Shown in pieces: positions 3-14,700 of a stretch of 31,743 nucleotides of DNA. The translations under genes and the position numbers were made by a program. Each line of letters begins with the position of its first letter. Positions within the stretch are counted from its first letter, which is position 1. The notes beneath the pieces are model-generated. The model made no database searches and was not told where the DNA came from. It was given only the letters and a program-made list of their open reading frames with translations. The stretch covers positions 1 to 31,743 of the forward strand of contig DATMCI010000056.1 of NCBI GenBank assembly GCA_035558535.1. Direction: 5' to 3'. Source of the DNA: Kofleriaceae bacterium (lineage in GTDB: Bacteria > Myxococcota_A > Polyangia > Haliangiales > Haliangiaceae).

Positions 3-137
3 CAGGCGCCGCACATCGGGCACCCGACGTTCCCGTGCACGGCCAACGCCGGCCTGACCGCGCAGAAGAGCTTCTACGACAAGACGATGGCGAACATCAC
101 CGCGGGTGGCTGCGCTCCCAAGCCGCTCCAGAACTAG
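3..137 (+). CDS. 3' terminal fragment of an upstream gene (product unknown); reads ...QAPHIGHPTFPCTANAGLTAQKSFYDKTMANITAGGCAPKPLQN*
   Basis: Frame 3 is open from the window edge to TAG at 135-137. It has strong GC third-position bias and is followed by a terminator hairpin at 179-213. Confidence 0.45.
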   Translation, partial: QAPHIGHPTFPCTANAGLTAQKSFYDKTMANITAGGCAPKPLQN

Positions 138-178
138 TCCGAGACTCCCCCCCCAAGAGATAGACAACAGCAAGAGAA

Positions 179-213
179 CCGAAGGCGCCCCGCGAGGGCG
201 CCTTCGGCGTTTT
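179..213 (+). terminator. Rho-independent terminator (11-bp GC-rich stem ccgaaggcgcc/ggcgccttcgg, 7-nt loop, then cgtttt)
   Basis: Perfect inverted repeat at 179-189/197-207 followed by a T4 run, sited 40 bp after the upstream stop codon. Confidence 0.6.
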
Positions 214-318
214 CGGCGCTGCGCGCTCGGCGCCCTCGGCGCTGCGCTGAGCGCTGAGCGGCGAAGGTGTACCTCGAATCGCACCTCAAGTAGCCGCGCG
301 CAGCTAGACTTGACCGAA

Positions 319-909
319 ATGGCCGGCGCGCCTTTCACGGCGATTCCGCCGCTTCCGATCGCCCGCTTCTCGGTGGAGCAATACCACCGCATGCTCGAGT
401 CGGGCGCGTTCACCGAGGACGACCGCCTGGAGCTCATCGAAGGCTGGGTGGTGCAACAGCTGGCGAAGGGTCCCGGTCACGAGTACGCGGTCGGTCAAGG
501 CGAGGAGCTTCTGCGAGCGTGCGTCCCTACCGGATGGCACGTGCGCAACCAGGCGCCCATCACGCTGGCGAGCAGCGAGCCGGAGCCCGACCTGGCGATC
601 GTGCGCGGCGATCGCGGAGCCTATCGACGGCGCCACCCGGCCGCGTCCGACGTCGCGCTGGTGGTCGAGGTCTCGGACACGTCACTCGACACCGATCGCA
701 TCAAGGGCAAGACGTACGGCGCGGCGGGGATCGCCCAGTACTGGATCGTCAACCTCGTCGATCGATGCGTCGAGGCGTACGCGCAGCCGGATCCGGCGAG
801 CGAAGCCGGGTACGCCCGCCGCGCGCTCTTTCGCGCGAACGAGACCATCCCGCTTCATATCGCCGGCCAGGACCTCGGCACGCTGGCCGTGGTCGCGCTC
901 CTGCCCTGA
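319..909 (+). CDS. Uma2 family (DUF820) PD-(D/E)xK putative restriction endonuclease-like protein
   Basis: ATG at 319 inside the listed 106..909 ORF. Motifs FSVEQYHRMLESG...ELIEGWVV, PDLAIV, LVVEVSDTSLDTDRIKGKTYGAAGIAQYWIVNL match the Uma2/DUF820 family signature. Confidence 0.8.
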   Translation: MAGAPFTAIPPLPIARFSVEQYHRMLESGAFTEDDRLELIEGWVVQQLAKGPGHEYAVGQGEELLRACVPTGWHVRNQAPITLASSEPEPDLAIVRGDRGAYRRRHPAASDVALVVEVSDTSLDTDRIKGKTYGAAGIAQYWIVNLVDRCVEAYAQPDPASEAGYARRALFRANETIPLHIAGQDLGTLAVVALLP

Positions 910-3874: not shown

Positions 3875-4339
3875 TCACGAGTCGACGAGCAGCTCCGTCA
3901 CCCGGCCGAGGTGCGCGTCGACCTCGACGCGCGCGTCGTAGGCCGGGCCCGCCTCCGGCGGATCACTCCGCGTGAACGTCACGACGAAGACGGGGCCGCG
4001 GCGCGTCACCTCGACGCCGCCGCCCGGCGACAGCTCCACGTTGTCGACGAGGATCTCGCGCGCCACCCGGACCGCCTCCGCTTCGGAGATCTCCGCGGGC
4101 GCGAGGCCGCGCTCCGCCATCACGGCCTTGAGCCTGCGGTACCGCTCGAGCAGCATCGCGCGGTTGCCCCAGTCCTCCTGCTCGTCCGCGACGCGCGGCT
4201 CGAGGAACGTCCCGCCCTCCCCGATCATGCCGTTGAACGGATTCAGCATCACTTGTGCGTAGTCCCAGTCGTGGTGGAACACCATCTCGAACGCCCAGAC
4301 GAGCTCGGTCAGCGCGTCGTGTAGCTCGCGGTCACTCAT
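3875..4339 (-). CDS. Hypothetical protein (154 aa), divergent from the STAND gene
   Basis: Only the 3' 465 nt of the giant 3875..8917 shadow ORF show protein-like composition (MSDRELHDALTELVWAFEMVFHHDWDYAQVMLNPF...). ATG at 4339 (alternative 4348). The rest of that ORF is antisense to the STAND gene. Confidence 0.5.
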   Translation of the reverse strand: MSDRELHDALTELVWAFEMVFHHDWDYAQVMLNPFNGMIGEGGTFLEPRVADEQEDWGNRAMLLERYRRLKAVMAERGLAPAEISEAEAVRVAREILVDNVELSPGGGVEVTRRGPVFVVTFTRSDPPEAGPAYDARVEVDAHLGRVTELLVDS

Positions 4340-4468
4340 GCCGCGCATGATGACAGCCCGCCGCGCGCGAAAACCGGACAGAAAACCGGACAGCCGCGCC
4401 TCCTCGAGCGCGCCAGCATCGTGCAGCAAACGGCGGCACCCCTGGCAATATAGATGTCGGAAGGAGCG

Positions 4469-7400
4469 ATGGACCGCCTCGACCTCGCGCAGGAGCCACG
4501 CAGCGTTGTCCCGGGCCCGTCCGCCCGGTTCGGCAAGAGCCTCGCCGTGGTGATCGGGGTCGACGTCTACGGCGAGGGCATCGCGCCGCTCCGCTCGGCA
4601 GTCGCCGACGCGAAGGCGATCGCGGCGGCGCTGGAGCGCGATCACGGCTTCGAGACGTGGCGCCTGCTCGACGGCGACGCGGAGCTCCCGCACCTGCTCG
4701 CGCTCTTGCGCGAGCGGCTGCCCGCCGCGCTCGAGCAGGGCGATCGGCTCGTGCTCTACTTCGCCGGCCACGGCATCGCGCTCGATGGGGACGCCGGCCC
4801 GGCCGGCTACCTGCTGCCGGCGGGCGCCCAGCGCGCCGAGCGGGATGGCTTCTTGCCGATGCACGTCGTGCACGGCGAGCTGGCGCGGCTCCCGGTGCGC
4901 CACGCGCTGATCATCCTCGACTGCTGCTTCGCGGGCACGTTCCGGTGGTCGAGCCTGCGCGACGTCGTGCCCGAGTCGTCGACGATCTACCGCGAGCGCT
5001 ACGACCGCTACCTCGAGAGCGCGGCGTGGCAGGTGCTGACGTCGGCGAGCAGCGACCAGCTCGCGCTCGACATGCTCGCGAACGACCGCGGCGAGGGCGA
5101 GGGCGTGCACTCGCCGTTCGCGCTCGCGCTGCTCGACGGCCTCGCGGGCGCCGCCGACTACACGCGGGACAACGTGATCACCGCCGACGAGCTGGCGATG
5201 TACGCGCGCGAGCGCGTCGCGTCGGTCGCCGAGTCGGTGGGCCGCCGCCAGGTCCCGCAGCTGTTCCCGCTCGATCGCCACGACGCGGGCCAGTTCGTGT
5301 TCCAGGTGCCGGGCCGCGCGGTCGCCCTCGCCGCCGCGCCGCCGCTCGACGAGGCCCAAAACCCCTACCGCGGCCTGCGATCGTTCCTCGAGGAAGACCG
5401 CGGCCTGTTCTTCGGCCGCGACGCGGTCGTCGAGCGGCTCGCCCTGGCGGCCGCCGCGCGACCGCTCACCGTGGTCGCCGGCCCGTCGGGCTCGGGCAAG
5501 TCGAGCCTCGTCCACGCCGGGCTCGTGCCGGCGCTGCGCGCGCGAGGCTTCACCGTGCTGCCATCGCAGCGCCCGGCGCGCGCGCCGCTCGACGCCCTCG
5601 ACGCGTGGACGCGCGCGCTCGGCGCCGAGCCGATCCCCGGCGCGCCGGTGCGGTCGTGGGCGACCGCGGTCGCGGCGCGGGCCGCCGCCCACCCGGACCG
5701 CCCGTGGCTCGTCATCGTCGATCAGCTCGAGGAGCTGCTCACCCACCGGACCGCCGAGGCCGATCGGCTCGCGTTCCTCGGCGCGCTGGCGGACGCGCTC
5801 CGGGCCGCGCCGCAGCTCCACGTGATCGTGACGGTCCGCTCCGACGCCGAGCCGCAGCTCCACGACACCGCGCTCGCGCCGTGGTGGGCGGCCGGGCGGT
5901 TCGCCGTCCCCGCGATGACCCGCGACGAGCTCCGCCAGATCATCGAGCGGCCGGCGACCGCGGCCGTGCTGCACTTCGAGCCGTCGCGGCTGGTCGATCG
6001 GCTGATCGACGACGTCGCGCTGGTCCCAGCGCCGCTGCCGCTCCTGTCGTTCGCGCTGTCCGAGCTGTACCGCCGCTCGTGGGCGCGCTGGCAGGCCGGC
6101 GACCGCGACCGCGGGCTGCGCGAGGCCGACTACGACGAGATGGGCAGCGTGGCGCGGGCGCTGACCCAGCGCGCGACGGCTGTGCACGACGCGCTGGTGG
6201 CCGAGGACGCGCAGTACGCGACCACGATCCGCAACGTGTTCACCCGAATGGTCGCGCTCGTCGGCGGCGAGCTCGCGCGGCGGCGGGTGCCGCGCCACGA
6301 GCTTGCGTACGAAGATCCGGCCGAGGACCGACGCGTCGACGACGTCCTGCTGCGGTTCCACGACGCGCGCCTGATCTCGCTCGGGACCGAGCCGGCCCCC
6401 GACGGCGGCGCGAGCGCGTACGCCGAGCCGACGCACGACGAGCTGGTGCGCGGCTGGGCCCAGGTCCGCCGCTGGCTCGACGAGCTCGACGCGCCGGCCG
6501 GGACGCGGGCGCTGCTCGGCGCGCTGGCAGACGCGGTGCGGCCGTGGCGGACCCAGGGCCGCGCCGACTCGTACCTGTGGAGCGACGCGCGCGTCGAGCT
6601 CCTGAGCGCGCTCGGGCGGAGCCGCCGGCTCGCGCTCAACGCCGACGAGGCGCGCTTCGTCGCGCGCGCAGCGCGGCGGCGGCGCTCCCAGCGCAGGCGC
6701 CTGGTCGGGGGACTCTTGGCCGTGATCGTCGTCCTGGCCGTGGCCGCCGGCGTCGCCCTCTCGCAGCGCGATCAGGCGCAGCAGAACGCCGCGCGCGCAG
6801 AGGAGAACGCCGCCCGCGAGAAGCTCGCGCAGCAGCGCGCGTCGTCCGAGGCCCAGCGGGCCACGAGCCTGCTCGCGCGCATGTATCAGGAGGCCGGCCA
6901 CCAGTTCCTGCTCGATGGGCACCGCTTCAAGGCGCTGCCGTTCCTGGTGGCGGCGCGGCGCGAGGGCGAGGCGGGCACGCCGCTGCGAATGCTGTTCTGG
7001 ACGGCGACGCGCGCGCTGCCCAGAACGCCGCCGCTCGATCACCAGCGCGCCGTGACGAGCGCCGCGTTCAGCCCCGACGGCGCCCGCGTCGTGACCGGGG
7101 GCTTCGACCATACCGCGCGCGTCTGGGACGCCGCGACCGGTAGGCCGCTCCTGCCGCCCCTCCAGCACGGGGGCATCTTGAAGCGCGTCACGTGGAGCTC
7201 CGACGGCAAGCGGATCGTCACCGCCTCGCTCGACCACCGCGTGCGGATCTGGGACGCCGCGGCCGGCACGCTCCTCGTCACGATCCAGGACCGGAGCGCG
7301 CCGAGCGTCGCCGTGCTCAGCCCCGACGGCGCCCGCCTGCTCACCGCGAACAACAACGACACCGCGCAGCTCTGGGACGCCGCGACCGGCAAGCCGCTCG

Positions 7401-9115
7401 GCCCGCGCTTCCAGCACGCCGGCGCGGTGACCGACGCCGCGTGGAGCCCCGACGGCGCCCGCGTCGTCACCGCCAGCCGAGACTACACCGCGCAGGTCTG
7501 GGACGCCGCGACCGGCAAGCCGCTCGCGCCGCCGCTCCGGCACGCCAGCGTGGTGAACAGCGCCGCGTGGAGCCCCGACGGCGCCCGCGTCATCACCGCC
7601 AGCACCGACAAGACCGCGCGCGTCTGGGACGCCGCGACCGGCGAGTCGATCGGCCCGCCGCTCTTGCACCGCGAGAACGTCCGCGCCGCCTCGTTCAGCC
7701 CCGACGGTGCGCTCGTCGTCACCGCCAGCGACGACAAGACCGCGTGCGTCTGGGACACCGGCGCGGGCCGCTTCCAGCCCCTCGAGCACCAGCGCGCCGT
7801 GACAGGTGCGGCGTGGAGCCCCGACGGAACTCGCGTCGTCACCGCCAGCACCGATGGCACCGCGCGGATCTGGGACGCCGCGACCGGCCGGCCGCTCTCG
7901 CCGCCCCTCGAGCACACGGACGAGATCCTCCACGTCGCGTGGAGCCCCGACGGTGCCCGCATCGTCACCGCGAGCAGAGACAAGACCGCGCGCGTCTGGG
8001 ACGCCGCGAGCAGCGGGCCGCTCTCCCGGTCCCTCGCGCACACGCACGCCGTGAAGACCGCCGCGTGGAGCCCCGACGGCGCCCGCGTCGTCACCGGAGG
8101 CGACGATCATGCCGCGCACATCTTCGCCGCCGCGACTGGCAAGTCGCTCGGCCCGCCCCTCGAGCACCGGGGCTCGGTGAACTGGGTCGCGTGGAGCCCC
8201 GATGGCGCCCGCGTCGTCACCGCCAGCGCCGACGACACCGCGCGGATCTGGAGCGCCGCCACCGGCAAAGAGCTCGCCACCCTCCAGCACCAGAACAAGG
8301 TGTGGCGCGCCGCGTGGAGCCCCGACGGCACCCGCGTCGTCACCGCCAGCTTCGACAAGACCGCGCGGATCTGGAGCGCCGCCACCGGCAAAGAGCTCGT
8401 CACCCTCCAGCACCGGGGCGAGGTGCGAAGCGCCGCGTGGAGCCCCGACGGCACCCGCGTCGTCACCGCCAGCGCCGACAACACCGCGCGCGTCTGGGAC
8501 GCCGCCACCGGCCGCGCCCTGCCCCCGCCGCTCGAGCACCGCGGCCCCGTGTGGAGCGTCGCGTGGAGCCCCGACGGCACCCGCGTCGTCACCGCCAGCG
8601 CCGACAACACCGCGCGCGTCTGGGACGCCGCCACCGGCGCCCAGCGCGCCCGCCCCCTCGAGCACCAGGGCGCCGTGCACGATGCGTCGTTCAGCCCCGA
8701 CGGCTCGCTCGTCGTCACCGCCAGCGCCGACAAGACCGCGCGCGTCTGGGACGCCGCCACCGGCATGCCGGCGTCTCCGGCCTTCGAGCACCGGGACAAC
8801 GTGAGCAGCGCCGCGTTCAGCCCCGACGGCGCGAGCATCGTCACCGCGAACGACGACGGGACCGCGTCCGTGTGGAGCCTCGCCACTCACAAGCTGCTCG
8901 GCGCGCCGTTCCAGCACCGAGAGCTCGTGTGGACCGCAGCGTTCAGCCCCGACGGTACGCGCGTCGTCACCGCCAGCGACGACCAGACCGCGCAGATCTG
9001 GGAGCTCCCGATCGCCAGCGGCTCCCTCGCGGAGTGGGACGAGCTCGCGGAGCGGAGCCCGTACCTGCTCAGTAGCGGCGTGCTCGTGCCGCGCCTTTTG
9101 CGCCCCGCGCCGTGA
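4469..9115 (+). CDS. STAND NTPase: N-terminal caspase-like peptidase C14 domain - NACHT/AAA P-loop NTPase - single hydrophobic helix + coiled coil - ~15 WD40 repeats
   Basis: SD aaggag lies 5 nt before ATG at 4469. Caspase His/Cys dyad context: YFAGHG ... IILDCCFAG. Walker A VVAGPSGSGKSSLV, Walker B LVIVDQLEE. Hydrophobic segment LVGGLLAVIVVLAVAAGVAL. C-terminal tandem WD40 units are built around the recurring WSPDG/VWDAATG motifs. Confidence 0.85.
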   Translation: MDRLDLAQEPRSVVPGPSARFGKSLAVVIGVDVYGEGIAPLRSAVADAKAIAAALERDHGFETWRLLDGDAELPHLLALLRERLPAALEQGDRLVLYFAGHGIALDGDAGPAGYLLPAGAQRAERDGFLPMHVVHGELARLPVRHALIILDCCFAGTFRWSSLRDVVPESSTIYRERYDRYLESAAWQVLTSASSDQLALDMLANDRGEGEGVHSPFALALLDGLAGAADYTRDNVITADELAMYARERVASVAESVGRRQVPQLFPLDRHDAGQFVFQVPGRAVALAAAPPLDEAQNPYRGLRSFLEEDRGLFFGRDAVVERLALAAAARPLTVVAGPSGSGKSSLVHAGLVPALRARGFTVLPSQRPARAPLDALDAWTRALGAEPIPGAPVRSWATAVAARAAAHPDRPWLVIVDQLEELLTHRTAEADRLAFLGALADALRAAPQLHVIVTVRSDAEPQLHDTALAPWWAAGRFAVPAMTRDELRQIIERPATAAVLHFEPSRLVDRLIDDVALVPAPLPLLSFALSELYRRSWARWQAGDRDRGLREADYDEMGSVARALTQRATAVHDALVAEDAQYATTIRNVFTRMVALVGGELARRRVPRHELAYEDPAEDRRVDDVLLRFHDARLISLGTEPAPDGGASAYAEPTHDELVRGWAQVRRWLDELDAPAGTRALLGALADAVRPWRTQGRADSYLWSDARVELLSALGRSRRLALNADEARFVARAARRRRSQRRRLVGGLLAVIVVLAVAAGVALSQRDQAQQNAARAEENAAREKLAQQRASSEAQRATSLLARMYQEAGHQFLLDGHRFKALPFLVAARREGEAGTPLRMLFWTATRALPRTPPLDHQRAVTSAAFSPDGARVVTGGFDHTARVWDAATGRPLLPPLQHGGILKRVTWSSDGKRIVTASLDHRVRIWDAAAGTLLVTIQDRSAPSVAVLSPDGARLLTANNNDTAQLWDAATGKPLGPRFQHAGAVTDAAWSPDGARVVTASRDYTAQVWDAATGKPLAPPLRHASVVNSAAWSPDGARVITASTDKTARVWDAATGESIGPPLLHRENVRAASFSPDGALVVTASDDKTACVWDTGAGRFQPLEHQRAVTGAAWSPDGTRVVTASTDGTARIWDAATGRPLSPPLEHTDEILHVAWSPDGARIVTASRDKTARVWDAASSGPLSRSLAHTHAVKTAAWSPDGARVVTGGDDHAAHIFAAATGKSLGPPLEHRGSVNWVAWSPDGARVVTASADDTARIWSAATGKELATLQHQNKVWRAAWSPDGTRVVTASFDKTARIWSAATGKELVTLQHRGEVRSAAWSPDGTRVVTASADNTARVWDAATGRALPPPLEHRGPVWSVAWSPDGTRVVTASADNTARVWDAATGAQRARPLEHQGAVHDASFSPDGSLVVTASADKTARVWDAATGMPASPAFEHRDNVSSAAFSPDGASIVTANDDGTASVWSLATHKLLGAPFQHRELVWTAAFSPDGTRVVTASDDQTAQIWELPIASGSLAEWDELAERSPYLLSSGVLVPRLLRPAP
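7040..9000 (+). repeat. Nucleotide-level tandem repeat array (period 126 bp = one WD40 unit) inside the STAND gene, including two exactly identical 78-bp copies at 8435-8512 and 8561-8638
   Basis: Strings such as gcgtggagccccgacggc(g/a)cccgcgtcgtcaccgccagc and gacaagaccgcgcgcgtctgggacgccgc recur at a 126-bp spacing many times. Confidence 0.85.
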
Positions 9116-9169: not shown

Positions 9170-10984
9170 ATGCACGCGCAGCTCCTCGCCGAGATCCTCG
9201 CGGAGCCGCGCTCGATCGCGCCGCGGCTGGTCTACGCCGACGCGCTGCTCGAGGCTGGCGACCCGCGCGGCGAGCTCATCCAGCTCCAGTGCGCGCTCGA
9301 GGAGCAGGGCGCCGACGATCCGGCGCGCGAGGAGCGCGAGGCGCGCGCGGCTGACCTGCTCGCGCAGCACGAGCCGGCGTGGACGCGCGAGCTGCGCGCG
9401 AGCTGCCAGCTCCACGATCACCCGTTCGAGCTCGGCTTCCGCCGCGGCTTCGTCGAGCGCGCGCGGGTGCCGGGCAGCCGCGTGCCGGAGGTGCTGCCGC
9501 TGCTCGCGGCGCAGACCCCGCTGCGCGAGCTGCAGCTCCGCATCAAGGGTTCCATCGAGGCGCTCGCCGAGGTCCCTGGCCTGATGGAGCTGGAGGGCCT
9601 GTCGCTGGACGGCTCGACGACCGCCGGCGACCGCGCGCGCGCGTTCGCGCGCTGGCCGCACCGCGGGCGGCTGCGCTCGCTCGAAGCCGACGACGGGACC
9701 GCCATCGCGCACGCGGTGGCCGAGACGCCGGCGCTGGCCGGGCTCGAGAGCCTCGCGCTGAGCTTCGTCGACGCCCGGGGGGTCGCGGCGCTCGCCGCGG
9801 CGGCGCACCTCGCGCCCCTGCGCAAGCTGCGGCTCGCCCACGCCGTGATCGACGGCGCGGAGCTCGCCGCGCTCGGGCGCGCCGAGGTGTGGCCCGCGCT
9901 CGAGGCGCTCGATCTCCGGCGCTCGCGCGTGGGCGGCAACGGCGCGCTCGCGCTCGCGCACCTGGCCGCCGCGCGCCTGCGCGAGCTGCGCTGCGATCAG
10001 GGACTCGCCGCCGACGACGTGCTCGCGCTCGCCGCCCGCGCCCCGGACCTCGAGGTCGCCGATCTCGAGGGCGTCCGGCTCCAGGACACCGGCGCGCGGG
10101 CGCTCCTCCACGGCGCGGCCGCGCGCGCGAAGCTGCGCCACCTCGATCTCTCCGACACCGGGCTCTCGGACCAGGGCCTCGCCGGCGTGGTGCGCGCGCT
10201 CGAGGACGCCAGCCTGCGCCGGCTCGCGTGCTGCAAGAACGATCTGTCCACCGCCGCCACCGCGGCGATCGCGGCGAGCCGCGCGCTCGACGGTCTGCAG
10301 CAGCTGTTCCTGGCGGGGTGCCCGCTCGGCGACGCCGGGGTGACGGCGCTCGCGAGGAGCGCGCACCTGCCGGCGCTCCGCGTGCTCGATCTCGCGCGGA
10401 CCGAGTGCGGCCGCGGCGGGCTCCAGGCGCTCGGCCAAAGCGAGCTCGGGGCGCGCCTGGTCTCGCTGGAGCTCGGCTACAATGAGCTCGTCGATCGCGA
10501 TCTCGGCGCGCTGCTCGCCGGGCGTCGCCTCGATCGGCTCGAGCGCCTCACCCTCGGCGGCCTGGACCTGGAGCTGCCCGGCGCCCGCGTGCTCGCCGGC
10601 TCGCCGCTCGCCGCGCGCCTCCGGGCCCTCACCCTCGGGCGGCTCCAGCCCGACGCGGCCGCCCTGCTCGCGGCGGCCGACCTGCCCGAGCTGCGGCAGC
10701 TCGTCATCGGCGACTTCGACGATCGCGCCGCCGCGATCCTCGCCCAGTCGCGCGGCACGCCGTGCCTCTCGCACGTGGTGATGTTCAGCTCCCAGCTCAC
10801 CGACCAGGGCGCGTTCGCGCTCGCGGAGGCCCCCGGGCTCACGCGGATCACGTGGCTCGAGCTCGACGCGCCGCACGTGACCGATGCCGGCAAGGACGCG
10901 CTGCGGCGACGCTTCGGCCACCGCGTCGGCGTGTTCTCCGGCGCCACGCTGCACGCGTTCTCGGCGCTGTCGCGCCGGTTCTGA
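9170..10984 (+). CDS. TIGR02996-type N-terminal 'repeat-companion' domain fused to ribonuclease-inhibitor-like leucine-rich repeats
   Basis: N-terminus LVYADALLEAGDPRGELIQLQ matches the TIGR02996 signature. Repeated L-rich ~28-aa units follow (LDLSDTGLSDQGLAGVVRAL, LAGCPLGDAGVTALA...). Starts 55 bp after the STAND stop on the same strand. Confidence 0.7.
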   Translation: MHAQLLAEILAEPRSIAPRLVYADALLEAGDPRGELIQLQCALEEQGADDPAREEREARAADLLAQHEPAWTRELRASCQLHDHPFELGFRRGFVERARVPGSRVPEVLPLLAAQTPLRELQLRIKGSIEALAEVPGLMELEGLSLDGSTTAGDRARAFARWPHRGRLRSLEADDGTAIAHAVAETPALAGLESLALSFVDARGVAALAAAAHLAPLRKLRLAHAVIDGAELAALGRAEVWPALEALDLRRSRVGGNGALALAHLAAARLRELRCDQGLAADDVLALAARAPDLEVADLEGVRLQDTGARALLHGAAARAKLRHLDLSDTGLSDQGLAGVVRALEDASLRRLACCKNDLSTAATAAIAASRALDGLQQLFLAGCPLGDAGVTALARSAHLPALRVLDLARTECGRGGLQALGQSELGARLVSLELGYNELVDRDLGALLAGRRLDRLERLTLGGLDLELPGARVLAGSPLAARLRALTLGRLQPDAAALLAAADLPELRQLVIGDFDDRAAAILAQSRGTPCLSHVVMFSSQLTDQGAFALAEAPGLTRITWLELDAPHVTDAGKDALRRRFGHRVGVFSGATLHAFSALSRRF

Positions 10985-13578: not shown

Positions 13579-13647
13579 GGTCCTGGGGGTAGATTGGAGC
13601 GCTGGGACCACGATGTCCACAGGCGAACGCGAGCCCGGCCGCCGTGG

Positions 13648-13806
13648 CGGCCGGAACAATCCGCCGCCGGCCCGCGTTCAGCGCTGATGTTGCGCACCGC
13701 GACGCTCGGCCTCGCCCTCTACCTCGCGTTCACCGCGTCGGCTCGCAGCACGCTCTCGGTGATCGTCGTCTGCCCCATCGCGGCGCCGCCCGCTCGGAGC
13801 GTGCTG
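13648..13806 (+). repeat. R-family repeat copy R1 (5' region and signal-peptide coding part of the Pro-rich gene), ~85% identical over ~100 bp to 17443-17546
   Basis: gctcggcctcgccctctacctcgcgttcaccgcgtcg is identical in both copies and downstream identity is also high. The upstream part shares atccgccgc with R2/R3. Confidence 0.7.
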
Positions 13807-14700
13807 GTTGCAGCGCCGCAGCCGCAGCCTCCTCCGCCGCAACCACCACAGCCACAGCCCCCTCCGCCGCAACCACCGCAGCCACCTCCCCCACCGCCTG
13901 CGCCACCGCCCCCGGCCCCCGCTGCGCAAGATCCGTGTCCCGCGCCGTTCACGGCGGGCACGACCGGCGAGCTCCACGCGCCGCCCGGCATCGACGCGCT
14001 CACCCCGTCGCGGCACGACGTCCGCTTGCTCGCGGCCTGGAGCCGCGACGCGCTGCACGTCAGCACCGACGAGGGGCAATCGTTCCAGCAAGTACTCGAT
14101 CACCGCGGCGAGATCGGCGACGTGGCCTTCGACTGCCACGGCCGCCTGCACGCCCTCCGCGGCGACGGCGAGCTCGGCACCTACGACCCACGCACGAAGG
14201 CAGAGCGCTGGACGCGCGTGACGACGCTCTGGTCGCGCGGCGACACGATCGATCCAGGCCGGCTGGTCCCCGACGGCGCCGGTGTCGCGGTCATCGGCAA
14301 CACGCCGACGCGGCGCGATCGGCTCTGGCTCGTGCGCCGCGGCGAAGACGGACGCTGGCACGCAAAGCACCTGTTCAGCGATCGCGAGCCGGACTACTGG
14401 TCCGGAATCTACATCGGCTCGATCCGCGTGCTCCCCGGCGATCGGATCCGCCTCATGGCGACGCCGAACATGGCCGACTACGGCGTCGCCGAGTGCGGCT
14501 ACTCGAAGCTCTTCGAGGTGACGTTCGATCCCGGCGCCCGCCGGATCGCCGTCCGCGATCTCGGCGAGGGCGGCGAGCATCGGGACGACCGCCTCCAGCA
14601 GGACCCCATGGGGCGCTGGCTCCTCGTGACCGACGGCCGCGCGGCGCGGCTCACGACCGAGGAGCTCGCGGACCGGCTCGCCACGCCACCTCCCCCCTGA
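13687..14700 (+). CDS. Secreted proline-rich protein: Sec signal peptide, (PQPPPP)n linker, C-terminal globular domain of unknown function
   Basis: MLRTATLGLALYLAFTASA signal sequence. The linker PQPQPPPPQPPQPQPPPPQPPQPPPPPPAPPPPAP is encoded by an internal ~33-bp DNA duplication. GC3 bias is consistent with coding. Confidence 0.6.
   Translation: MLRTATLGLALYLAFTASARSTLSVIVVCPIAAPPARSVLVAAPQPQPPPPQPPQPQPPPPQPPQPPPPPPAPPPPAPAAQDPCPAPFTAGTTGELHAPPGIDALTPSRHDVRLLAAWSRDALHVSTDEGQSFQQVLDHRGEIGDVAFDCHGRLHALRGDGELGTYDPRTKAERWTRVTTLWSRGDTIDPGRLVPDGAGVAVIGNTPTRRDRLWLVRRGEDGRWHAKHLFSDREPDYWSGIYIGSIRVLPGDRIRLMATPNMADYGVAECGYSKLFEVTFDPGARRIAVRDLGEGGEHRDDRLQQDPMGRWLLVTDGRAARLTTEELADRLATPPPP

Follow-up and report, generated by a model that had tools for sequence, protein, structure and literature searches.

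Did the WD40 units at the C-terminal end of a bacterial caspase-like protein arise from one another by recent copying at the level of DNA, and is the resulting array still turning over? The question is raised by contig DATMCI010000056.1 of a Kofleriaceae bacterium (Myxococcota, Polyangia, Haliangiales), whose 31,743 nt constitute the window analysed here. A single gene on its plus strand (4454..9115; open reading frame (ORF) list and translation) encodes, in this order, a caspase domain, an nSTAND1 NTPase, a predicted transmembrane (TM) helix and 16 WD40 units. We consider it likely that the array is the partly homogenised WD40 sensor of a one-gene caspase-nSTAND1 "conflict system" protein resembling the NOD-like receptors (NLR), formed by recent unit duplication or conversion and varying on the top face of its propellers. 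Counted from the first ATG the product has 1553 residues; the record HWO18562.1, which begins at Met6 (nt 4469; 1548 residues), is its exact product and was recorded as 'caspase family protein [Kofleriaceae bacterium]' from a metagenome-assembled genome (MAG).

The repeats are real and were rightly located. A 79-nt tract of unit 12 (8434..8512, plus strand; codons 11-36 of the unit and one base) recurs identically in unit 13 (8560..8638, plus strand), the two copies being 126 nt apart, start to start. The initial annotation had described two exact 78-bp copies at this spacing; the identity and the spacing stand, and the tract is one base longer on its left side. Tandem Repeats Finder (TRF) reports one array at 7027-8993, with a period of 126, 15.7 copies, 72% matches and 6% indels, which bears out the units of 126-bp period that had been described in the DNA. 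The parsing of the protein on the anchor motif S[PS]DG yields 16 tandem WD40 units (7034..9034, plus strand; period 126, 123 or 120 nt) starting at 7034, 7160, 7283, 7409, 7535, 7661, 7781, 7907, 8033, 8159, 8282, 8405, 8531, 8657, 8783 and 8909, the lengths of which, from unit 1 to unit 16, are 42, 41, 42, 42, 42, 40, 42, 42, 42, 41, 41, 42, 42, 42, 42 and 42 residues. These units are documented by TRF, the repeat search, the unit parsing, the Pfam WD40 match (15 stretches, E 5e-134), the beta-blades of an AlphaFold2 (AF2) model and the match of that model to PDB entry 2ymu. The array contains 18 maximal exact direct repeats that reach 25 nt or more; the longest measures 79 nt, three others 40-44, eight 30-38 and the remaining six 25-29. 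Three 2-kb control stretches of the same window contain none, and the many exact strings of 30-40 bp reported previously are thereby confirmed. The next-longest tracts lie in units 10-12 (8237..8473, plus strand) and include 40 nt common to units 10 and 11 (8237-8276 and 8360-8399) and 44 nt common to units 11 and 12 (8307-8350 and 8430-8473).

The array is, however, only moderately uniform. Over the first 36 codons, the pairwise identity of the units ranges from 59 to 93% for nucleotides and from 31 to 89% for amino acids, and the mean identity between units is 74% for nucleotides and 60% for amino acids across whole units. The similarity is highest among units 10-14 and lowest for units 2, 3, 6, 9, 15 and 16 (68-71% mean nucleotide identity), and only units 12 and 13 are close: this pair, which is the closest of all (89% amino acid identity over 36 residues, 85% nucleotide identity over the whole unit), differs at 19 of 126 nt. 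The words near-perfect and homogenised, by which the array had been characterized, thus go too far. The first is at odds with the 72% TRF matches, with the two means and with the differences between units 12 and 13; the second is at odds with the same TRF figure, with an internal identity at the 0.6 level of the scale of Hu et al. 2017, and with a uniformity far under the >85% of the fungal repeats of high internal conservation (HIC). A higher-order period of 372 nt, also proposed by TRF, was rejected, the mean identity at an offset of three units (0.753) being the same as at offsets of one and two.

The window has a GC content of 70.9% and the GC content at third codon positions (GC3) of the caspase-STAND gene reaches 0.96, so identical residues will often share a codon by chance; the tests were therefore set against a codon-bias null. 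Identical degenerate residues of different units use the same codon in 84% of the cases (1982/2350), as compared with the 58% expected from the codon usage of the first 860 codons of the same gene. The choice of codon also depends on the unit column: alanine is GCG in 12/12 instances at column 11 and in 15/15 at column 28, and GCC in 13/13 at column 33 (chi-square p=3.8e-8), and valine is GTG in 12/13 at column 7 and GTC in 25/26 at columns 19/20 (p=1.4e-7). For units 12 and 13, the probability of 26 identical codons given the same amino acids is 4.3e-7, or 5e-5 when corrected for 120 pairs; all 19 differences between them fall outside the 79-nt core, a gap that none of 2,000,000 random placements reproduced. 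The number of synonymous substitutions per synonymous site (dS), according to Nei and Gojobori, is about 0.27 for all unit pairs and about 0.13 when only the eight units that resemble one another most, and their scaffold codons, are counted. The codon sharing and the column-specific codons indicate a true nucleotide-level homology, which goes beyond protein conservation.

The comparison with homologous arrays points in the same direction. When the arrays of P0006, P0013, P0025, L083 and L005 are included, the closest nucleotide relative of each of the 16 units is found inside the same gene (16/16), and the same-codon share is 0.84 within the gene versus 0.53-0.69 to the five homologous arrays. 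The amino acid identity is 0.58 among the gene's own units and 0.61 to the units of L083. This gene-specific clustering reads as a signature of lineage-specific expansion and/or concerted evolution; lineage-specific expansion explains it equally well, the compared genes being distant (about 61-64% amino acid identity, for the N-terminal module where measured). No relative above 78% amino acid identity was found in the genome and metagenome contig collections with the N-terminal 860 residues as query. Recent intragenic unit duplication and/or gene conversion is supported, the two processes being inseparable here, and units 10-14 are the youngest or the most recently converted. The proposal of recent unit duplication or concerted evolution, made in the initial annotation, is thus upheld by the correlation at synonymous sites, the 84% versus 58% codon sharing and the best matches within the gene.

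That annotation had further proposed an in-frame expansion or contraction of the sensor by unequal recombination, and this claim divides into two parts. Each of the 18 exact tracts (25 nt or longer) recurs at a spacing that is a multiple of 3, so that a recombination between tracts would gain or lose whole units in frame; this part holds. The number of units in related genes is 16, about 15, 8 and about 6-7. Ongoing recombination, on the other hand, is not borne out by a test of the pairwise homoplasy index (PHI) type on the 16 units (p=0.93, not significant), nor by the identity of the units, which does not decay with their distance (0.756 at offset 1, 0.751 at offset 8). A segment-wise nearest-neighbour scan of the units was suggestive only. 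An ongoing unequal recombination is plausible in view of the layout of the tracts.

Where do the units differ? An AF2 model of residues 790-1553, based on a 60-sequence alignment (mean predicted local distance difference test (pLDDT) 87), has as its best PDB match 2ymu, a 'highly repetitive propeller structure' (E 1.9e-53, 32% identity), and Apaf-1 (3sfz) likewise ranks near the top of its structural matches. Apaf-1 has 7+8 blades, compared with the 16 units of this protein. In the model based on the multiple sequence alignment, unit 9 and one half of unit 3 are disordered; a single-sequence model folds all 16 units at a lower confidence (pLDDT 73). By DSSP of the AF2 model, strands A, B, C and D occupy unit columns 7-12, 18-23, 27-32 and 38-2; columns 3-6 make up the D-A loop and columns 24-26 the B-C loop, opposite to the face on which the A-B (SPDG) and C-D (AATG) loops are found. 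The D-A and B-C loops of a WD40 propeller form its top, ligand-binding face. The most variable columns (entropy H>2 bits) are 2, 4, 5, 6, 8, 9, 24 and 26, plus the outer strand D: columns 4, 5 and 6 are inside the D-A loop, 24 and 26 inside the B-C loop and the remaining ones at the adjoining strand ends, and the bottom loops SPDG and AATG are almost invariant. The amino acid variation is, according to the model, centred on the top face of the propeller. In the independent homologue L083 the top eight variable columns are 2, 4, 5, 6, 8, 11, 24 and 26, that is, 7/8 in common with this gene, and the entropy profiles correlate (rho=0.60 with L083, rho=0.77 with the pooled homologues). When the 16 units are compared, the ratio of nonsynonymous to synonymous substitution rates (dN/dS; Nei-Gojobori) is 2.3 at the columns that vary in this gene versus 0.88 elsewhere, and 2.6 versus 0.89 when the variable columns are defined on L083; only this contrast between column classes is robust, not the absolute value above 1.

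Could the nucleotide similarity result merely from purifying selection on the WD40 scaffold and from the extreme codon bias that goes with a genome of 71% GC? The high GC3 does bring more than half of the same-codon choices by chance, and the scaffold residues SPDG, TAS, WD and AATG are conserved in the homologues as well. Against this stand the excess of codon sharing over that expectation, the column-specific codons within alanine and within valine, the probability of the order of 4e-7 attached to the 26 identical codons of units 12 and 13, and the units of L083, which are equally similar in protein (0.61 vs 0.58) and share fewer codons (0.64 vs 0.84). The codon-bias explanation is largely refuted, and we consider it very improbable. 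A static, ageing array, born of one or a few old bursts of duplication followed by divergence, with units 12 and 13 as the last duplication and no turnover, would account for the PHI result, for the identity that is flat over unit offset, for a mean amino acid identity of 60% in the 'moderately repetitive' class, for the existence of only one exact tract longer than 44 nt, and for the clearly greater divergence of units 2, 3, 6, 9, 15 and 16. It accounts poorly for the patchy sharing in units 10-13 (a 40-nt tail in 10/11, a 44-nt core in 11/12, 79 nt in 12/13), for the confinement of the 19 differences of units 12 and 13 to two variable segments, unlike a clock-like divergence, and for the wide variation of unit number among homologues; the PHI test, moreover, is low-powered on 108-nt units with selected, homoplastic sites. 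A static array is in our opinion unlikely.

The array might also owe its unit number, its order or its 79-nt identity to the assembly, by collapse, expansion or a chimera of strains, neither the identity nor the count of 16 being then biological. The source is a short-read MAG contig, and the name of the copy in ENA, k141_883413, suggests a k-mer assembly with k=141; over the 10.6 kb that were compared, this copy does not differ from the window, and being the same sequence rather than an independent assembly it does not corroborate the count of 16. The contigs of the nearest WD40-bearing relatives, L083 and L005, stop within their arrays or close to them, a frameshift interrupts the array of P0006, and for highly conserved WD40 repeats short-read assemblies have been documented as unreliable (PMC12222747). 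In the present case, all 16 units are distinct (16/16), the longest exact tract, with its 79 nt, falls short of both k=141 and a 150-nt read, the reading frame stays open for 4.6 kb and leaves the array for a tail that is conserved among homologues, and the documented failures concern repeats that are 80-100% identical, well above this array. An artefact is accordingly quite improbable, and assembly collapse is less likely than the initial annotation implied; the count of 16, which comes from a single short-read MAG assembly, is provisional and probably right. As to a targeted hypermutation by a diversity-generating retroelement (DGR) or a similar templated mutagenesis, it comes to mind because DGRs diversify nSTAND1/NACHT sensors in multicellular bacteria and because the homologue P0095 bears an FGE-sulfatase sensor, of the C-type-lectin fold. 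The known DGR targets are, however, C-type-lectin/FGE or Ig folds and not WD40, the 16-mers of the array are absent elsewhere in the 31.7-kb contig on both strands, so that a template repeat is lacking there, and the scanned ORFs of the contig include no reverse-transcriptase domain; such a mutagenesis is extremely improbable. The same 16-mer search of both strands found no second copy of the WD40 array in the window.

In these relatives the frameshift of P0006 is located at 4197/4217 of L080, and the arrays at 6573-7611 of L083 and 12401-12844 of L005 run up to a contig end or close to it; the units of these nearest WD40-bearing relatives are more uniform (80-87% TRF matches). Such breaks are what one would expect if short-read assemblers had difficulty with genes of this family.

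A recent duplication or conversion in the sensor of a conflict-system protein, the reading we favour, has to be weighed against several points. The PHI result and the absence of decay over unit distance have been mentioned; a mean amino acid identity of about 60% further indicates that most units have been diverging for some time. The dN/dS values above 1 come from the Nei-Gojobori method at a GC3 of 96%, a bias that lowers dS and inflates the ratio. The two AF2 models disagree on units 3 and 9 as blades. The TM topology is drawn only from hydropathy and the positive-inside rule. Finally, the protein has no known ligand, activity or defence-island context, and among the scanned neighbours no recognised defence gene was found, these being ordinary metabolic and signalling genes.

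The N-terminal half of the protein carries the caspase and the NTPase. The caspase-like peptidase C14 domain (residues 29-270; 4538..5263, plus strand) matches Pfam PF00656 with E 3.1e-14 and 53.6 bits (cutoff 21.4); the PADLOC caspase match has E 1.2e-6, PADLOC yielding only weak domain matches. The His motif FAGHG (residues 103-107, nt 4760-4774) and the Cys motif DCCFAG (residues 156-161, nt 4919-4936) are in place, and the caspase H, G, D, C and C are nearly invariant across the 60-sequence alignment. This domain is the predicted effector, and the WD40 array would be the sensor half of the receptor. The protein is not claimed as a member of the EACC1-type caspases, the NCBIfam 'caspase_w_EACC1' match of 69 bits being under the cutoff of 140. 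The nSTAND1 NTPase (residues 304-705; 5363..6568, plus strand) matches Pfam PF20703 with E 1.2e-85 and 288.9 bits (cutoff 27.1) over profile positions 1-378 of 379, and contains a Walker A motif, GPSGSGKSS (residues 343-351, nt 5480-5506), and a Walker B-like VIVDQLEE from residue 420. The Pfam scan of the N-terminal 860 residues returned nSTAND1, weak NACHT, AAA_16 and bpMoxR, and no NB-ARC domain. Between the TM helix and the propellers, a helical linker (6761..7033, plus strand), which holds the conserved region MYQEAGHQ...LPFLVAARREG, forms helices at residues 791-820, 824-836 and 842-852 in the AF2 model and is conserved in the homologues. The gene ends with a non-repeat C-terminal tail (LAEWDELAERSPYLLSSGVLVPR...; 9026..9112, plus strand) conserved in the homologues P0013, P0019 and P0025, which indicates that the ORF exits the array in frame. 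A minus-strand ORF at 3875-8917 (1680 residues) was considered as a gene and taken as a shadow ORF, its GC3 being 0.77 versus 0.96 for the plus strand.

Between the NTPase and the linker lies a polybasic RRRRSQRRR (residues 741-749) followed by the hydrophobic segment LVGGLLAVIVVLAVAAGVAL (residues 750-769, 20 residues), the whole at 6674..6760 on the plus strand; it is a predicted signal-anchor or TM helix, N-in/C-out. The Kyte-Doolittle 19-residue mean of LVGGLLAVIVVLAVAAGVAL is 2.77, and a polybasic plus hydrophobic segment occurs at the same place in 80/105 homologues longer than 900 residues. In P0001, the closest N-terminal homologue (73% identity), a dCache domain is bracketed by two such hydrophobic segments. 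A dCache domain between two TM segments is the classic layout of a periplasmic sensor. By the positive-inside rule, the caspase and the NTPase are predicted to be cytoplasmic and the WD40 array extracytoplasmic; given a signal-anchor helix, the array probably faces the periplasm. This topology is not claimed as new: an extracellular WD40 was already proposed for the cyanobacterial orthocaspases of the caspase-AAA-TM-WD40 type (PMC7475262).

The closest caspase-nSTAND1 relatives (P0001, P0002, P0008 and P0004; 65-73% identity) carry as sensors a dCache domain between two TM segments, a TPR domain, a protein kinase or none, and the more distant P0095 (47% identity) an FGE-sulfatase sensor. Such different C-terminal sensors on close relatives suggest that the sensor is exchanged as a cassette on a conserved N-terminal chassis. 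Homologues of the N-terminal module at 42-47% identity are abundant in Nostoc, Calothrix, Moorena and Scytonema. No conserved neighbour genes were found around the homologues, so the system consists of this one gene.

How ordinary is such an array? TRF was run on 147 fetched loci and the window, that is, 148 sequences, and 38 arrays with a period of about 126 were found in 33/148 of them, with matches of 64-92%. The 72% matches of the present array lie toward the low end of this range, and more uniform arrays exist: L003 with 89% over 13.9 copies, L137 with 88% over 13.8, L124 with 88% over 9.2 and L010 with 92% over 3.7.

Hu et al. 2017 (PMC5587647) described repetitive WD40 proteins of prokaryotes, in which dS is low and the hotspot sites vary; the solved example, 2YMU, is that of Nostoc punctiforme. 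In that work, highly repetitive proteins have at least 6 of 8 contiguous repeats with all pairwise amino acid identities of at least 0.7, and moderately repetitive ones lie between 0.4 and 0.7. The present array reaches the 0.60 level and not 0.65 or 0.70, and is consequently 'moderately repetitive', at an identity level of 0.6 instead of the at least 0.7 of the highly repetitive class. Its low dS (0.27 for all pairs and 0.13 for scaffold codons) falls in the range, mostly below 0.4, of a young duplication. The features common to both are a multi-propeller array, an unusually high internal identity, a low dS, a conserved scaffold and diverse hotspots on the top face. The host here is a myxobacterium, whereas the abstract of PMC5587647 reports an enrichment in Cyanobacteria and Planctomycetes and its text does not contain 'myxo'.

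The fungal WD40 repeats of the HET-E type are known for a concerted evolution with positive selection (Paoletti 2007, PMC1805685). As in HET-E, HET-D and HNWD of Podospora, a STAND NTPase is followed here by C-terminal 42-residue (126-bp) WD40 units that are homologous in DNA; the units cluster by gene, a few hypervariable top-face positions have an elevated dN/dS, the repeat number varies among family members, and the caveat of short-read assembly applies. The HIC repeats of NLRs are >85% (80-100%) identical over at least 100 residues (Dyrka 2014, PMC4986451; PMC12222747), and the present array, with a mean amino acid identity of 0.60, remains below this threshold: its units are 59-93% identical in nucleotides and about 60% in amino acids, as against 80-100% for the fungal HIC repeats. 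It also differs by its nSTAND1 instead of NACHT, its caspase instead of HET and its membrane anchor, and paralogue exchange and strain polymorphism are documented in Podospora.

Among bacterial proteins, the nSTAND1 clade, in which repeat sensors go together with caspase or TIR effectors, was described by Kaur, Iyer, Burroughs & Aravind 2021 (PMC8195603; Pfam PF20703). The product shows what characterizes these conflict proteins: PF20703 with Walker A and B, a caspase with the catalytic dyad motifs and a variable C-terminal sensor. It has in common with them a full-length nSTAND1, an N-terminal caspase effector, a C-terminal repeat sensor, a host phylum that is socially multicellular and sensor swaps (dCache, TPR, kinase, FGE) among its closest homologues; it differs by the absence of an EAD adaptor, an EACC1 constant domain, a conserved partner gene and a defence-island context. 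The cyanobacterial orthocaspases Ava_0039 and Ava_3079, p20 - AAA_16/NACHT - TM - WD40 (Bhattacharjee & Mishra 2020, PMC7475262), have the same domain order and the same topology, with the protease and the NTPase in the cytoplasm and the WD40 outside, a prediction in both cases; they belong to another phylum, and PMC7475262 does not deal with a homogenisation of the repeats in DNA. WD40 sensors are also known in bacterial STANDs and in the Apaf-1-like caspase-AP-ATPase-WD40 proteins of bacteria (Nature 2026, PMC13581612). The logic is that of Apaf-1 and of these proteins, in which the WD40 senses, the STAND NTPase oligomerises and the caspase is activated; the present protein has an nSTAND1 and not an AP-ATPase/NB-ARC, and a TM helix between NTPase and sensor.

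The genes that surround the caspase-STAND gene code for a Uma2 protein, a GMC oxidoreductase, an OmpA-like protein, a TIGR02996/LRR protein, an aldolase, a WGR protein and a beta-helix protein, and further for an MVP-like protein, a GGDEF response regulator, a histidine kinase and components of ABC and TRAP transporters. The Uma2-family putative restriction endonuclease (106-909, plus strand; PF05685, E 3.4e-22), near the contig start, is the only neighbour with a possible link to nucleic-acid conflict. On the same strand as the caspase-STAND gene and 55 nt downstream of it, 9170-10984 encodes a 604-residue protein with an N-terminal TIGR02996 ('repeat-companion') and leucine-rich repeats (LRR), which is not conserved beside the homologues. 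An 847-residue ORF at 18832-21375 (plus strand, GC3 0.98) matches the shoulder domain of the eukaryotic major vault protein (MVP; PF11978, E 6.6e-25) and the Vault_3 MVP repeat (E 1.5e-11), both above the Pfam cutoffs, and its predicted product is a bacterial MVP-like protein; no NCBIfam family matched this ORF. Two other tandem repeats were reported by TRF: a 30-nt unit in 2.7 copies (88% matches) at 13819-13898, within the unannotated ORF 13594-14700, and a 21-nt unit in 2.3 perfect copies at 31676-31743, at the contig end, which may be the reason why the assembly stopped there.

The mechanism we propose combines the turnover of the array with the activation of the receptor. The array would grow, shrink and be patched by RecA-type homologous recombination, that is, unequal crossing-over or gene conversion, between the in-frame tracts of 25-79 nt, and selection on the top-face residues would turn it into a modular, fast-changing ligand-binding surface. 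The binding of a ligand to the propellers would license the NTP-dependent oligomerisation of the nSTAND1 module, thereby bringing the caspase domains together and activating them, which would result in cell death or signalling. This scheme of activation is modelled on Apaf-1, the Avs proteins and fungal HET-E. Could the protein be a membrane-spanning 'death receptor' of a social bacterium, whose periplasm-facing array of 16 blades is actively recombining and selected at eight top-face positions per blade, tracks extracellular or periplasmic ligands and drives a cytoplasmic caspase through the NTPase? We judge this decidedly unlikely. The candidate ligands would be phage entry proteins, toxins delivered by competitors or kin-recognition cues and, if true, the protein would be a bacterial counterpart of the fungal allorecognition NLRs, which senses the outside of the cell.

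In conclusion, good descriptions of such arrays already exist for bacteria and fungi, and the present one is an ordinary member of the described class. It documents in Myxococcota a pattern already seen in the NLRs of fungi and in WD40 proteins of cyanobacteria and actinobacteria, in which the repeat scaffold is similar in DNA while a few surface positions vary, and it offers a concrete set of in-frame recombination substrates. If a turnover of the repeats were shown in natural Kofleriaceae, this gene would become a tractable case for the ligands of membrane-anchored caspase-STAND receptors.

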